A stretch of 64,000 nt of DNA, from assembly GCF_050320075.1 (NCBI RefSeq), contig NZ_CP190018.1. One strand, written 5' to 3'. Positions 1,551 through 40,504 of the stretch are shown here, in pieces (positions within the stretch are counted from its first letter, which is position 1; each line of letters begins with the position of its first letter). The notes beneath the pieces were generated by a model, which worked only from the letters and a program-made list of their open reading frames with translations, had not been told where the DNA came from and made no database searches. The translations under genes and the position numbers were made by a program. Origin of the DNA: Escherichia coli (lineage in GTDB: Bacteria; Pseudomonadota; Gammaproteobacteria; Enterobacterales; Enterobacteriaceae).

Positions 1551-3017
1551 TTAAATTTTGAGGGTGTTTAATAGCGCCTGATGCGCGCCGAATTGTGCGA
1601 TTTGTTGCCAGGCTTGTTCGATAGCCTGCACAAAATGCGGGTTATCTGGCAGATCATCACCGAAAACTTCACGCAGGGAAAGCAGGGCGGTGACGCGTTG
1701 TTCACTGCTACTGCCCGCAACAAGTTCGCGAATTTTATCGCTAAGCGGATCGCGAACATCAATGGCATTTCCGGCATCATCAACGCCGCTGACGTAACGC
1801 ATCCAGCCTGCAACGCCTAATGCCAGCAACGACCAGTCCGTTTCGCGCGCCAGATGTATGCGAATACCTGCCAGCATACGTTGCGGTAATTTCTGGCTAC
1901 CATCCATTGCGATTTGCCAGGTCTTATGTTTCAGCGCCGGGTTAGCAAAACGTGCAATTAACTTATCCGCATATTGTGTTAAATCGACATCTTTAATTCG
2001 CAGTGTTGGCGCTTGCTCATCCAGCATTAATGTTCTGGCGGCATGGCGAAATGCGCGATCCTGCATGCAATCACTGATATGGGCGAATCCTGAGAGGTAA
2101 CCCAGATAAGCGAGAAAAGAGTGGCTGCCATTAAGCATACGCAGTTTCATCTCTTCCCATGGCAGGACATCATTCACCATTTGTACACCTGCGACTTCCC
2201 AGGCAGGACGCCCAGCGACGAAGTTATCTTCCACCACCCACTGGATAAACGGTTCGCAGCTAATCGCGCAGGGATCATTCACCCCCAGATGCTGGCTGAT
2301 TTCCGCTAGTGATTCGTCGGTTGCAGCCGGAACAATGCGGTCGACCATGGTTCCCGGAAAACTGACGTGTTCTTTTATCCACCCGGCGAGTTCTGGTGAA
2401 CGTTTTTCCGCCATCCCCAGCACCGCGTTTTTCACCACATGGCCATTGTCGGGAATATTGTCGCAGGAGAGTACGGTAAACGGTGCAAGGCCGCGTTCAC
2501 GGCGTCGTTTCAGTGCTTCGACGAGAATACCCGGCGCGGAGTGAGGTTCTTCAGGGTTTTGTAGATCGTGAATAATCCGCGGATTGCTGGTGTCGAGTGC
2601 ACCGGTGGCCGGGTCAATACAATAGCCTTTTTCGGTAATCGTCAGGGAAACAATTGCCACCTGTGGCTCGCAAAACTTCTCAATAATTGCCGCTAAGGAA
2701 TCCAGTTTTGCATTCAGGCATTCGTGAACGGCACCGACAATTATCGCCTGATTGCCGTCCGCCCCTTTCTCCAGCACGGTATATAAATGGTTCTGTGCGC
2801 GGAGCTGGCTCATCAGTTGATCGCCGCTGAACAAGCTGATTTCACAGATCCCCCAGTCGCCGCCCTGGGCATTCAGCACACGATCGGTCAGTAATGCCTG
2901 ATGTGCGCGGTGAAAGGCACCAAAGCCAAAATGAACGATACGTGATTGCAACTGCTGGCGATCGTAGCGTGGAGCGTGTACATGATGCGGGAGCGTAACG
3001 GAGGCGATTGTATTCAT
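1551..3017 (-). CDS. yeiQ: Mannitol dehydrogenase-family oxidoreductase YeiQ
   Basis: 491-aa ORF from a GTG at 3026; first ATG at 3017 gives 488 aa (MNTIASVTLPHH...); start choice uncertain. Confidence 0.85.
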   Translation of the reverse strand: MNTIASVTLPHHVHAPRYDRQQLQSRIVHFGFGAFHRAHQALLTDRVLNAQGGDWGICEISLFSGDQLMSQLRAQNHLYTVLEKGADGNQAIIVGAVHECLNAKLDSLAAIIEKFCEPQVAIVSLTITEKGYCIDPATGALDTSNPRIIHDLQNPEEPHSAPGILVEALKRRRERGLAPFTVLSCDNIPDNGHVVKNAVLGMAEKRSPELAGWIKEHVSFPGTMVDRIVPAATDESLAEISQHLGVNDPCAISCEPFIQWVVEDNFVAGRPAWEVAGVQMVNDVLPWEEMKLRMLNGSHSFLAYLGYLSGFAHISDCMQDRAFRHAARTLMLDEQAPTLRIKDVDLTQYADKLIARFANPALKHKTWQIAMDGSQKLPQRMLAGIRIHLARETDWSLLALGVAGWMRYVSGVDDAGNAIDVRDPLSDKIRELVAGSSSEQRVTALLSLREVFGDDLPDNPHFVQAIEQAWQQIAQFGAHQALLNTLKI

Positions 3018-3239: not shown

Positions 3240-3812
3240 TTAGTCAGCACGCCCCATATAACGGCGTTCTTCGATATGGATACGAATTTTTTCGCCCGGG
3301 CTTAAGTATTCTGGTACCTGAATCACCAGACCAGTGCTCAATGTCGCCGGTTTGTTACGGGCGCTGGCAGATGCCCCTTTGATGCCAGGTGCGGTTTCAA
3401 CGATTTCCAGATCAACGGTCTGCGGCAGCTCAAGCGCCAGCAGTTGACCGTCCCAGGTCAGCACCTGCATGTCCGGCATGCCGCCCTCTGGCATAAACAG
3501 CAACTCTTCTTCAATCTGATCTTTGGTGAAGGTATACGGGGTATAGTCTTCTTTATCCATAAAGACATATTCGTTACCATCGACATAGGAGAAGTCAACG
3601 TAACGGCGGGTCAGAGTCACGGTGTCAACGATATCATCTCCTTTGAAACGCTCTTCTACTTTCAGCCCGGTACGGACATCAGAAAAACGCATTTTGTACA
3701 GCGTAGCGGCACCGCGGGCAGTGGGCGACTGAATATCAATGTCCTTAACCAGCAGCAGTTTGCCGTTGTAATTCAGTACCATACCTTTTTTAATTTCGTT
3801 CGCTCTTGGCAT
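3240..3812 (-). CDS. yeiP: Elongation factor P-like protein YeiP
   Basis: 190-aa protein from internal ATG at 3812 ([20 protein letters not shown]...), preceded by an AGGA RBS; the listed 275-aa ORF is an upstream in-frame extension. Confidence 0.9.
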
Positions 3813-37440: not shown

Positions 37441-38388
37441 ATGCGTGTGTTATTGGCACCGATGGAGGGAGTGCTTGACTCTCTGGTGCGTGAATTGCTG
37501 ACCGAAGTTAACGACTACGATCTGTGCATCACCGAGTTTGTCCGCGTGGTGGATCAACTGCTGCCGGTAAAAGTCTTTCATCGCATTTGCCCTGAGCTAC
37601 AAAACGCCAGCCGGACACCATCTGGTACGCTGGTGCGCGTGCAGTTGTTAGGTCAGTTCCCACAATGGCTGGCAGAGAACGCCGCCCGTGCGGTGGAGTT
37701 AGGTTCCTGGGGCGTGGATCTCAATTGCGGCTGCCCGTCGAAAACGGTTAACGGTAGCGGCGGCGGGGCGACGTTACTCAAAGATCCTGAACTCATCTAC
37801 CAGGGTGCAAAAGCGATGCGTGAAGCTGTACCGGCGCATTTGCCCGTCAGCGTGAAAGTGCGTCTGGGCTGGGACAGCGGTGAGAAGAAATTTGAAATCG
37901 CCGATGCGGTTCAACAGGCTGGCGCTACGGAGCTGGTGGTGCATGGGCGGACGAAAGAGCAGGGTTACCGCGCGGAGCATATTGACTGGCAGGCGATTGG
38001 CGATATTCGCCAGCGGCTGAATATTCCGGTGATTGCCAACGGTGAAATCTGGGACTGGCAGAGCGCGCAACAATGCATGGCGATCAGCGGCTGCGACGCA
38101 GTGATGATTGGTCGCGGGGCGCTCAATATTCCCAACCTGAGCCGGGTGGTAAAATATAACGAACCGCGAATGCCGTGGCCGGAGGTGGTTGCTTTGCTGC
38201 AAAAATATACCCGTCTGGAAAAGCAGGGCGATACCGGGTTATATCACGTTGCGCGGATTAAACAGTGGTTGAGTTATTTGCGTAAAGAATACGATGAAGC
38301 AACGGAATTATTTCAGCATGTTCGGGTGTTGAATAATTCCCCTGATATTGCAAGGGCTATTCAGGCAATTGATATCGAGAAACTCTAA
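37441..38388 (+). CDS. dusC: tRNA-dihydrouridine synthase C
   Basis: 315-aa protein from ATG at 37441 ([14 protein letters not shown]...); TIM-barrel Dus motifs. Confidence 0.92.
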
Positions 38389-38439
38389 AAAACCATAGTG
38401 ATGTTTTTTGACAATGTGTTAGCTCTTTATCAATAGGCC

Positions 38440-38700
38440 GCACGGTTGTTTGGTGGCGTCAAAATTGCCGAGGCGTTCCCTGAAGGCCGGGGCAGCCCAC
38501 ATGGATGTGGGCTGAGGGCGCGTTTTACAGGGATGTTACCTCGCGCCCGACCCGGTAGCCGTAAGGGATAAGCCGAGGGCACCGCGCAGCGGCGATTTTG
38601 TTCGCCAGAGCCCGGGGGTGCAGGGGGCGGCGGCGATTGGCCGCCCCCTGCGCGCTCCTTGCGCCAGTGATTATATGAAGCAATGCACATGACAGGAGCG
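38440..38700. other. GC-rich structured intergenic element of unknown function
   Basis: Visibly GC-rich; perfect 22-bp palindrome at 38493-38514 and a 12-bp stem / 8-nt loop hairpin at 38620-38651; the only ORF is a Pro/Gly/Arg-rich 86-aa frame. Confidence 0.4.
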
Positions 38701-38760
38701 CAACAGGATGAGAGACTGAAATATTCTCGTTATTTTCGGACCTGATGACATTAATTAATT

Positions 38761-38844
38761 TTAAAATATCATCTTAAATACGCCAGTCACCACCAGTAGC
38801 CCAATCAGGAAAATAATCAATACAGCCCAGAGTATAATTTTCAT
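38761..38844 (-). CDS. yohP: Small membrane protein YohP (27 aa)
   Basis: Reverse-strand ORF MKIILWAVLIIFLIGLLVVTGVFKMIF; below the ORF-track size cutoff. Confidence 0.8.
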   Translation of the reverse strand: MKIILWAVLIIFLIGLLVVTGVFKMIF

Positions 38845-39067
38845 TGGCGTTCCTTTATTTGTGAGTGCTGAATAAGTATAGGAAAAAACGAAGCCCTTTG
38901 CCGTTATCCATAAACGATTAAGATAAATCGGAAGATATCATTCACTTAGTGTATATTTTTCTGGATATGTCGTTTTATTGCCACTGATGTATTGCCACGC
39001 GAAACTAAAAAATATATCGCAACACACGGTAATCTCCGCGCACCTTTTCTTACCTGATTATTCCCCC

Positions 39068-40504
39068 ATGAATCGTGATTCCTTTTATCCAGCCATCGCC
39101 TGTTTTCCGCTGTTACTGATGCTGGCCGGGTGTGCGCCTATGCATGAAACCCGCCAGGCGTTAAGCCAGCAAACGCCCGCTGCACAAGTTGACACCGCAT
39201 TACCCACGGCGCTGAAAAATGGTTGGCCAGACAGCCAATGGTGGCTGGAGTATCACGATAATCAACTCACTTCCTTAATTAACAATGCACTACAGAACGC
39301 ACCGGATATGCAGGTGGCTGAACAGCGCATTCAGCTAGCTGAAGCCCAGGCGAAGGCAGTTGCCACTCAGGATGGTCCGCAGATCGACTTTTCGGCGGAT
39401 ATGGAGCGGCAAAAAATGTCGGCAGAAGGCTTAATGGGGCCGTTTGCTCTGAACGATCCGGCCGCAGGTACGACCGGCCCGTGGTACACCAACGGTACTT
39501 TTGGCTTAACGGCGGGCTGGCATCTCGATATCTGGGGAAAGAATCGGGCGGAGGTTACTGCCCGCCTGGGTACGGTTAAAGCACGGGCGGCGGAACGCGA
39601 GCAAACCCGCCAATTGCTGGCTGGCAGCGTAGCCCGCCTGTACTGGGAGTGGCAAACCCAGGCGGCGTTAAACACTGTCTTGCAGCAAATAGAAAAAGAG
39701 CAGAACACCATTATCGCGACCGATCGCCAGCTATATCAGAACGGGATTACTTCTTCAGTTGAAGGTGTGGAAACCGATATTAATGCCAGCAAAACCCGGC
39801 AGCAGCTCAACGATGTCGCGGGGAAAATGAAAATTATTGAGGCACGGTTAAGCGCACTTACAAATAACCAGACAAAGTCATTGAAGCTTAAACCGGTCGC
39901 GTTGCCGAAAGTGGCAAGCCAGCTTCCTGATGAACTGGGGTACTCCTTACTGGCCCGGCGGGCAGATTTGCAGGCGGCGCACTGGTACGTTGAGTCATCG
40001 CTAAGCACCATTGATGCGGCAAAAGCGGCATTTTATCCTGACATCAACCTGATGGCCTTCCTGCAACAGGATGCGTTGCACTTAAGCGATCTGTTCCGTC
40101 ATTCCGCGCAGCAAATGGGCGTTACGGCAGGCCTGACGCTACCCATTTTCGATAGTGGTCGTCTTAACGCCAATCTCGATATCGCAAAAGCCGAAAGCAA
40201 CTTGTCTATCGCCAGCTACAACAAAGCGGTGGTTGAAGCGGTGAATGACGTGGCGCGGGCAGCCAGTCAGGTTCAGACACTGGCGGAGAAAAACCAGCAT
40301 CAGGCGCAAATTGAGCGCGATGCCTTGCGTGTGGTAGGTCTTGCGCAGGCGCGCTTTAACGCGGGCATCATTGCGGGTTCCCGCGTCAGCGAAGCCAGAA
40401 TCCCCGCGCTGCGTGAGCGGGCCAATGGCCTGTTATTGCAAGGGCAGTGGCTGGATGCCTCCATTCAACTCACTGGTGCGTTGGGCGGGGGTTACAAACG
40501 CTGA
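39068..40504 (+). CDS. mdtQ: Outer membrane efflux lipoprotein MdtQ (OprM/NodT family), intact
   Basis: 478-aa protein from ATG at 39068; lipobox LLMLAGC; uninterrupted frame (listed ORF has a 30-codon upstream extension). Confidence 0.85.
   Translation: MNRDSFYPAIACFPLLLMLAGCAPMHETRQALSQQTPAAQVDTALPTALKNGWPDSQWWLEYHDNQLTSLINNALQNAPDMQVAEQRIQLAEAQAKAVATQDGPQIDFSADMERQKMSAEGLMGPFALNDPAAGTTGPWYTNGTFGLTAGWHLDIWGKNRAEVTARLGTVKARAAEREQTRQLLAGSVARLYWEWQTQAALNTVLQQIEKEQNTIIATDRQLYQNGITSSVEGVETDINASKTRQQLNDVAGKMKIIEARLSALTNNQTKSLKLKPVALPKVASQLPDELGYSLLARRADLQAAHWYVESSLSTIDAAKAAFYPDINLMAFLQQDALHLSDLFRHSAQQMGVTAGLTLPIFDSGRLNANLDIAKAESNLSIASYNKAVVEAVNDVARAASQVQTLAEKNQHQAQIERDALRVVGLAQARFNAGIIAGSRVSEARIPALRERANGLLLQGQWLDASIQLTGALGGGYKR

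Follow-up and report, generated by a model that had tools for sequence, protein, structure and literature searches.

The G+C-rich element between dusC and yohP in this Escherichia coli DNA is the TRIP1c repeat, also known as RRS-dusC; it has already been described and is not new. Taken as a whole, it is very probable that the element is TRIP1c/RRS-dusC, that it acts through the published mechanism of gap formation during replication and that it carries a hairpin fold kept by selection. The original prediction had offered three options for the block, namely another repeat family, a structured non-coding RNA or the remnant of an insertion, and had stated that a match with any known family of repeats would speak against it. 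The first of these options was right, in that the element is a dispersed repeat of the TRIP1 family, and the same match refutes its novelty.

Identity and setting of the repeat

The window, by which we mean the whole 64-kb stretch of DNA that was analyzed, is from E. coli, and its positions 38000-39100 are 100% identical to K-12 MG1655 records. The dusC-yohP spacer is 372 bp long and A+T-rich at both ends (30-32% G+C), and the G+C-rich block that had been noticed in it was borne out, with 64.8% G+C in 38440-38700 versus 51.7% in the whole window. The natural unit, 38432-38704 (64.1% G+C), is slightly wider than the block as it was originally drawn. The locus contains the following features:

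37441..38388, + strand: dusC (yohI), the upstream flank, with the start as in the K-12 annotation
38430..38690, - strand: 86-aa Pro/Gly/Arg-rich open reading frame, a G+C-rich artefact and no gene
38432..38704, + strand: TRIP1c repeat, 273 bp, equal to K-12 NC_000913.3 2229394-2229122 on the complementary strand
38446..38669, + strand: core of RRS-dusC, the segment that Pham et al. removed and gave as "281 to 58 bp downstream of dusC" (PMC11194060)
38761..38844, - strand: yohP, the downstream flank, a small membrane protein gene

Rudd was the first to describe, in 1999, the TRIP1 repeats, of which K-12 has three (Li et al. 2024, PMC10888264), and TRIP1c is placed at NC_000913.3 2229122-2229394, 43-44 bp past yohI, now dusC (PMC10888264). 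We took the TRIP1c coordinates from that paper and mapped them onto the window via the dusC stop (window 38388 = K-12 2229438). The element starts at 38432, at the published spacing from this stop, and yohP and mdtQ (yohG) lie downstream. Since 2023 the pair formed by TRIP1a and TRIP1c has been described under the name of "Replication Risk Sequences", as RRS-lysO and RRS-dusC (PMC10287960, PMC11194060), and a further RRS paper is a 2026 preprint (10.64898/2026.06.16.732529, Pham et al.).

A family HMM matched the window at 38449-38720, and the K-12 locus gave an identical 356-nt extract with the identical HMM score of 250.6. The G+C content of the unit fits the published TRIP1 range of 62-65%, and that of the RRS-dusC core is 67%. 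The inverted partner was found in the K-12 aqpZ-lysO spacer, where a complete copy (E 1.5e-77) runs opposite to both aqpZ and lysO. In sequence, position, length (273 bp, with a 222-bp core), G+C content, G-quadruplex (G4) motif and inverted partner, the element here agrees with TRIP1/RRS, and we saw no difference in the element itself.

The absence of a credible gene, as originally proposed, was upheld. No Pfam family was identified for either the 86-aa or the 41-aa open reading frame of the element, and the 86-aa frame is not kept among copies, which differ by indels that are not multiples of three, 1-nt indels among them. A small 3'-end open reading frame (ATG after AGGAG, ~38695-38722, encoding MRD*) was rejected as a conserved gene, given that these tiny frames are variable among the E. 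coli copies and are missing from most of the Klebsiella and Citrobacter copies.

Gap formation, strand and fold

TRIP1a/RRS-lysO and TRIP1c/RRS-dusC are near-identical and inverted, ~650 kb either side of dif. RecA and SSB peaks on the lagging strand were reported at both RRS loci and were gone after deletion (PMC10287960, PMC11194060). The RRS papers, including PMC11194060, also report that Pol I, II and IV are blocked by RRS in vitro and that Pol III is impeded in vivo, that RRS are active at ectopic sites, and that genome-wide supercoiling is altered when both RRS are removed or inverted. The double deletion was recovered only with a 200-kb amplification, and the pair is described as conditionally essential (PMC11194060). 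Almost every encounter of a purified replisome with the element produced a gap when the G4 strand served as lagging-strand template (RRS papers, the 2026 preprint among them), and a weaker block, at ~66% of encounters, was reported for the complementary strand (RRS papers). A G4-forming motif, GGGGGTGCAGGGGGCGGCGG, is given for one of the RRS strands (PMC11194060), and it is found in the window as follows:

38614..38633, + strand: G-quadruplex-forming motif GGGGGTGCAGGGGGCGGCGG, a single exact match, with none on the - strand

In the mechanism that the published experiments support, unwinding of the element by the fork allows the G-rich strand, which is the + strand of the window and the lagging-strand template, to fold. 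The fold stalls the lagging-strand polymerase and re-priming occurs downstream, so that a single-stranded gap of up to ~2 kb is left behind, onto which SSB and RecA are loaded. The strand assignment was examined indirectly, by GC skew, which was positive on the + strand of the window in seven of eight blocks of 8 kb. A positive skew marks the + strand as leading-strand sequence and thus as the lagging-strand template, in agreement with the publication. We infer that K-12 position 2.229 Mb is in the left replichore, which fits this assignment.

According to Pham et al. (RRS papers), the only other programmed gap-forming sequence is the pilE G4 in Neisseria gonorrhoeae, where the gaps induced by this G-quadruplex serve antigenic variation of the pilin. 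Both act during replication through a folded G-rich strand. By its description, however, the pilE G4 is short, requires a dedicated sRNA transcript and drives recombination, whereas the RRS is a repeat of ~270 bp with several helices.

The predicted fold of the element consists of the following parts, all on the + strand:

38460..38600, + strand: helix P1, with arms 38460-38475 and 38585-38600, enclosing two GGA-loop hairpins
38493..38514, + strand: hairpin P2, with loop CAUGGAUG at 38500-38507
38516..38548, + strand: hairpin P3, with outer stem GGGCGCG/CGCGCCC, an inner stem and loop ACAGGGAUGU (38527-38536)
38528-38535, + strand: segment CAGGGAUG of the P3 loop
38620..38651, + strand: hairpin P4, with a 12-bp G+C stem and an 8-nt loop, overlapping the G4 motif
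38652..38701, + strand: helix P5, in which GCGCUCCU (38652-38659) pairs with AGGAGCGC (38694-38701) and a variable loop lies between

Two of these parts had been noticed before. The hairpin at 38620-38651 was exact in both its 12-bp stem and its 8-nt loop. The "perfect 22-bp palindrome" at 38493-38514 was correct as regards its 10-nt arms, which are 100% complementary, but the GG at its center is not palindromic (its reverse complement is CC), and the sequence is therefore a hairpin with the loop UGGA/CAUGGAUG and not a perfect palindrome. The stability of the fold was compared with dinucleotide shuffles of the whole unit. As RNA, the minimum free energy was -143.8 kcal/mol (z -4.80), and none of 200 shuffles was as good; as DNA, it was -79.9 kcal/mol (z -5.92) for the + strand versus -73.7 kcal/mol for the - strand. 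The greater stability of the + strand as DNA is in line with the weaker block that was reported for the complementary strand.

In order to follow the fold across copies, 41 non-redundant sequences from five genera were aligned, comprising E. coli copies and homologues from Klebsiella, Citrobacter, Enterobacter and Pseudocitrobacter. The RNAalifold consensus had 51 pairs in 10 helices, with compensatory changes in 25 of the 51. Across the 41 sequences, 98.9% of the paired cells could pair, versus 37-46% when the partners were slid by 1-3 columns; the same slid controls had only 3-6 pairs changed on both sides, against 25, and covariation scores of 0.05-0.09, against 0.414. Compensatory changes were present in P1 (consensus helices 1-2, 7 of 13 pairs), P4 (consensus helix 9, 6 of 9 pairs across genera) and P5 (consensus helix 10, 3 of 7 pairs), the last of which reads GCGCUCC/GGAGCGC and is replaced by CGUUCAC/GUGAACG in Citrobacter and Enterobacter. 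In P2, five of the eight stem pairs covary and the loop CAUGGAUG is unchanged in all 41 sequences, and in P3 an inner A-U pair is G-C in 16 of the 41, with GGA present in the loop of all copies. Covariation throughout the alignment indicates that a single-stranded fold is under selection across the whole element. Based on these alignments, the fold that appears to be maintained across the Enterobacteriaceae is that of P1 around the two GGA-loop hairpins, followed by a small hairpin, P4 and P5.

The P4 hairpin overlaps the G4 motif. Its arms vary together among copies, as GCAGGGGGC/GCCCCCUGC, GUAAAGGGCG/CGCCCUUUAC and GUCAGGGAGGC/GCCUCCCUGAC. Covariation of this kind is what selection on a hairpin predicts, whereas a G4 alone would leave the C-rich arm unconstrained. 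The roadblock may thus owe as much to the hairpin fold as to the G4, or more. The unchanging P2 loop CAUGGAUG is unexplained by a pure roadblock, and a variant in which the stem is kept and the loop is changed from CAUGGAUG to CAUCCAUG is proposed. It is important to note that the alignment pairs nearly as well when read on the opposite strand (97.5% versus 98.9%), and consequently covariation does not separate RNA from single-stranded DNA, or one strand from the other. G-U cells outnumbered A-C cells by 39 to 11, which is a weak preference for the + strand. In the available text of the published RRS/TRIP1 papers we did not find this comparative layer, which comprises the covarying fold, the GGA loops and the likeness to TwoAYGGAY that is discussed below, and selection on the G4-overlapping hairpin was likewise not found there.

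Distribution and natural alleles

A search for other genomic copies and a comparison of the same interval in other E. coli genomes had been suggested with the original prediction, and both were run. Of 5426 complete E. coli genomes, 5425 had the element by blastn, at a total of 18,850 places (median 3 per genome, range 1-10). The other E. coli loci include the aqpZ-lysO and alx-sstT spacers. The aqpZ-lysO partner copy is outside the 64-kb window, within which no further copies of the element were found. Related copies were also present in Klebsiella, Citrobacter, Enterobacter and Pseudocitrobacter. At least 6-13 are carried by Klebsiella pneumoniae, two of them in tandem 437 bp apart, and most of the copies in Citrobacter are in head-to-head pairs of two sub-families, ~70 bp apart. 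The copy number in Klebsiella and the pairs in Citrobacter fit poorly with a single pair at the borders of Ter. Matches in three metagenome-assembled genomes labelled Desulfacinum, Sporobacter and "Proteobacteria" were Klebsiella/E. coli-type sequences, and these were treated as contamination or chimeras rather than as evidence of a wider distribution.

The K-12-type dusC-yohP spacer was present in 3313 of the 5426 complete E. coli genomes, and ~39% have another spacer allele. Nearly all of the genomes without the K-12 type matched the flanking genes only (65-66% of the query, spanning 1119 bp), from which it follows that the spacer itself differs in those genomes and is of about equal length. 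In four genomes in which the second dusC-yohP allele was checked (AZ162, an O157 strain, SF-166 and YZ3E2001), the element was inverted, in agreement with the tally by Li et al. of 2952 copies in forward and 2789 in reverse orientation (PMC10888264). The aqpZ-lysO copy of O157 is co-oriented with its neighboring genes and that of K-12 is opposite to them, so that, with the dusC-yohP result, both of the O157 copies are inverted relative to K-12. These natural inversions mean that the G4's presence in the lagging-strand template is not constant for the species E. coli. A simple invertible switch was considered and rejected, based on the logic that the two orientations carry different flanking spacer sequence, which indicates allele replacement and not site-specific inversion. 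Copies with internal deletions of the core, in which the GGA hairpins are removed, were found in ST131 EC958, in MS20677 and in one plasmid-borne copy. This variation among populations does not contradict the published experiments, and the natural inverted alleles of O157 and many other strains are ready material for the question of orientation in vivo.

Several of these observations could also be accommodated by a selfish, non-autonomous element of the MITE type that spreads among intergenic sites and whose effect on replication is incidental: the varying number of places per E. coli genome and the presence of at least five E. coli loci, the multiple Klebsiella copies with their tandem pair, the Citrobacter head-to-head pairs, the occurrence of both orientations at the same spacer, and the internal deletions, which suggest that single copies are dispensable. 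We consider such an element very unlikely. Alignments of the ends had neither conserved terminal inverted repeats nor target-site duplications, and between filled and empty alleles the whole spacer was replaced, with no clean insertion, so that the proposed remnant of an insertion is also unsupported. Each sequence type is reported to be at one fixed locus (PMC10888264). No copy was identified in the phage collection, and the 34 records with a match in the plasmid collection were all typed as non-mobilizable; several of these are chromosome-sized, and the three that were inspected had ordinary chromosomal genes. That the fold is under strong purifying selection in several genera, and that the pair is conditionally essential, points instead to a function for the host. 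An action in cis on the mRNAs of neighboring genes, as a 3'-end stabilizer or terminator-like structure for the upstream transporter or enzyme gene in the manner of REP/BIME, appears more improbable still. Every E. coli locus is 38-96 bp past a stop codon and the hairpins are very stable on both strands, as such a role would suggest, yet a terminator-like site (a stem with a T-run) was not found, the element is found facing either way with respect to the upstream gene, and the conserved loops and multi-helix architecture exceed the needs of a 3' stabilizer. The reading as TRIP1c/RRS-dusC, with its published mechanism and a selected fold, accordingly remains the one that we prefer.

Likeness to TwoAYGGAY and its meaning

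A search of Rfam had also been suggested, and its sole plausible family was TwoAYGGAY (RF01731), at a score below the gathering threshold. The full-length match covered 38446-38597 of the + strand (30.9 bits, E-value 0.031), and other copies from E. coli scored 30.6 and 33.1 bits, but all of these forward scores (31-33 bits) are below the gathering score of 43. Copies from Klebsiella, Citrobacter and Enterobacter had no match to RF01731 at E<1. In the search of all Rfam families at E up to 10, matches to AgvB, mir-1304 and snoRNA families were far below their gathering scores and were treated as chance.

TwoAYGGAY (Weinberg et al. 2010, PMC2864571) and the element share a long P1 stem that closes two GGA-loop hairpins. 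Both are multi-copy per genome, as judged by the Psychromonas seeds, which come from several loci. By eye, the Psychromonas and viral-contig members continue with a 12-13-bp hairpin, whose loop is 8 nt, followed by a small hairpin, like P4-P5 of TRIP1. The range of TwoAYGGAY includes gut Clostridia, Psychromonas and sites adjoining mutS in viral or prophage-like contigs, the last of which we take to be from Pseudomonas. Loop 1 (AUGGAU) fits AYGGAY in all 41 sequences; loop 2, which reads AGGGAU, AGGGAC or AAGGAC, departs from it with a purine at position 2. By nhmmer, the element was not detectably similar in primary sequence to the Psychromonas TwoAYGGAY seeds. TwoAYGGAY is classed among RNAs whose function is unknown, whereas the RRS has a demonstrated activity at the level of DNA.

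For a reciprocal test, viral-contig loci were fetched by a pattern from the Rfam consensus that already held CATGGATG. Ten of the 16 fetched loci that were scanned were bona fide TwoAYGGAY matches, with 52-59 bits, above the gathering score. A covariance model built from enterobacterial core copies only was then run against all 17 fetched loci, and it matched bona fide members at the same sites with E-values of 4.5e-5 to 2.4e-4, which are rough values from a short calibration. The matches covered the two-hairpin core only (model positions 39-105), in loci that had been preselected by a pattern with the loop CATGGATG. As the fetch pattern already contained the loop sequence, we regard the reciprocal match as supportive rather than decisive.

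This likeness raises the question of whether the element is, or is also, a structured small RNA gene of the TwoAYGGAY type, in which case a protein such as CsrA would be bound by the GGA loops and loss of the RNA could account for part of the RRS deletion phenotypes. The CsrA SELEX consensus is RUACARGGAUGU, which the loops ACAUGGAUGU and ACAGGGAUGU resemble. CsrB and CsrC have many more GGA sites, and the element, with only two or three, has fewer than these sRNAs. The sRNAs of the CsrB/CsrC type (Rfam clan CL00106, which holds TwoAYGGAY) present GGA in hairpin loops, as does the element, in which the two are 28 nt apart, and TwoAYGGAY has been proposed as a CsrA binder (PMC4333381). The invariance of the loop sequence while the stems covary, and the excess of G-U over A-C cells on the + strand, are also what an RNA would lead one to expect, but the nearly equal pairing on the other strand and the varying orientation of the element relative to the neighboring genes are not. 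Unlike a CsrB/CsrC-type sRNA, the element, in the four copies that were scanned (the window, K-12 lysO, Citrobacter and Enterobacter), had neither a sigma-70-like promoter nor an intrinsic terminator where one would be expected, and no paper reporting a transcript or CsrA binding at the locus was found in the literature. In addition, the effect at the level of DNA is reproduced by a purified replisome, according to the RRS papers. Based on this evidence, the RNA or CsrA reading is a minority rival that we think unlikely, and the DNA-level reading of the element as RRS-dusC is retained.

A related proposal is that TRIP1/RRS and TwoAYGGAY form one class, of which the hairpin fold and the loops, rather than the G4, would be the functional core. 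We put this forward tentatively, as a possibility that is more doubtful than probable. The link to TwoAYGGAY is possibly new, and it is the sole angle of this analysis of which that can be said. If selection keeps the hairpin fold and the invariant GGA loops, and not the G4, then the published mechanism needs refining. If the two families are one class, then programmed gap-forming DNA folds may extend well beyond the enterobacteria and TwoAYGGAY may be no RNA at all; alternatively, the GGA loops would mean that RRS also works via a bound protein or a transcript. Should the TwoAYGGAY link hold, a testable function would be gained for an orphan motif, one frequently seen in human gut metagenomes.

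Copies in Klebsiella and Citrobacter

The element is multi-copy in Klebsiella pneumoniae: a sequence pattern matched at least six sites, and blast located 13 places in a single chromosome. Six copies are distributed along the ATCC 13883 scaffold, and a tandem pair was identified in a further fetched locus; several of the K. pneumoniae copies adjoin REP-like sequences.

K. pneumoniae copies (L-numbers are fetched loci, in their own coordinates)
L034-L039: copies in the ATCC 13883 scaffold, at 0.83, 1.07, 1.14, 1.38, 2.18 and 4.24 Mb
L005 1047-1333 and 1484-1770: tandem pair, 437 bp apart

In Citrobacter the copies are arranged as divergent head-to-head pairs (L018 6730-7349, L048 7039-7650 and most other Citrobacter loci). 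The second member of the pair, on the opposite strand, belongs to an Enterobacter-like sub-family, and a conserved A+T-rich spacer of ~70 bp lies between the two.

Klebsiella-type or E. coli-type TRIP1 copies were also present on three MAG contigs labeled Desulfacinum (L012), 'Proteobacteria bacterium' (L020) and Sporobacter termitidis (L041). These appear to have arisen by contamination or by chimeric assembly at the repeat; in L020 the final ~45 nt of dusC are fused to unrelated sequence, together with a second TRIP1 copy that is truncated. Chromosome-size records are filed as plasmids in PLSDB (CP125156.1, 5.37 Mb; NZ_CP134663.1, 4.90 Mb; NZ_CP141089.1; NZ_OL790696.1), and the apparent plasmid matches for the element are therefore inflated.

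TwoAYGGAY loci beside mutS

Bona fide motifs of the Rfam family TwoAYGGAY, scoring 55-59 bits, were identified in nine loci (L060, L061, L065-L067, L068, L069, L070 and L073) on contigs which we take to be from Pseudomonas. The layout of L068 is repeated in the other eight: the motif adjoins mutS, with a C4 antisense RNA ~0.7-0.9 kb away, at the margin of prophage or tailocin-like contigs.

Features of L068
1-2628: mutS
2832-2951 (-): TwoAYGGAY
3654-3740: C4 antisense RNA

Downstream of the mutS-linked motifs lie a hairpin whose loop is 8 nt long and CGCCGTCAGGGCGG, which likewise occurs 3' of the Psychromonas seed copies of TwoAYGGAY.

Internal and 3'-end variation

Natural internal deletions, bounded by short direct repeats, were found in three copies. 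Most of the element core was lost in MS20677 and L002; in EC958 both GGA-loop hairpins are gone and the P4/G4 region is retained.

Internal deletions
L056 701-1114: ST131 EC958
L055 613-932: MS20677
L002 3001-3127

In two strains (H65, NZ_CM180508.1; H103, NZ_CP182182.1) an IS1 transposase is annotated inside the dusC-yohP stretch matching window 38000-39100.

The 3' end of the element (window 38695-38722) carries AGGAGCGCAACAGG-ATG, with which a 3-codon ORF (MRD*) opens. The same place in other E. coli copies holds differing ORFs, the shortest of 2 codons and the longest of at least 13, and most Klebsiella and Citrobacter copies have no ORF at the corresponding 3' place.

Where some strains have TRIP1d, the K-12 alx-sstT spacer (L057 608-1005) carries CCCTCTCCC...GGGAGAGGG repeats, presumably of the Box C type. 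The difference at this site is a swap of the entire spacer cassette and not a simple insertion (compare L059 608-1222).

Orientation at dusC-yohP and aqpZ-lysO

Another allele of the dusC-yohP spacer is present in approximately 39% of complete E. coli genomes. The orientation of the element within it was checked in four genomes (loci L077, L078, L079 and L001); it was inverted in all four, and the flanking spacer sequence differs too. The lysO copy of O157, too, has the opposite orientation to that of K-12 (aqpZ-lysO spacer, L003 versus L054), so that in this lineage the leading-strand template would carry the G-rich strand of both replication risk sequences.
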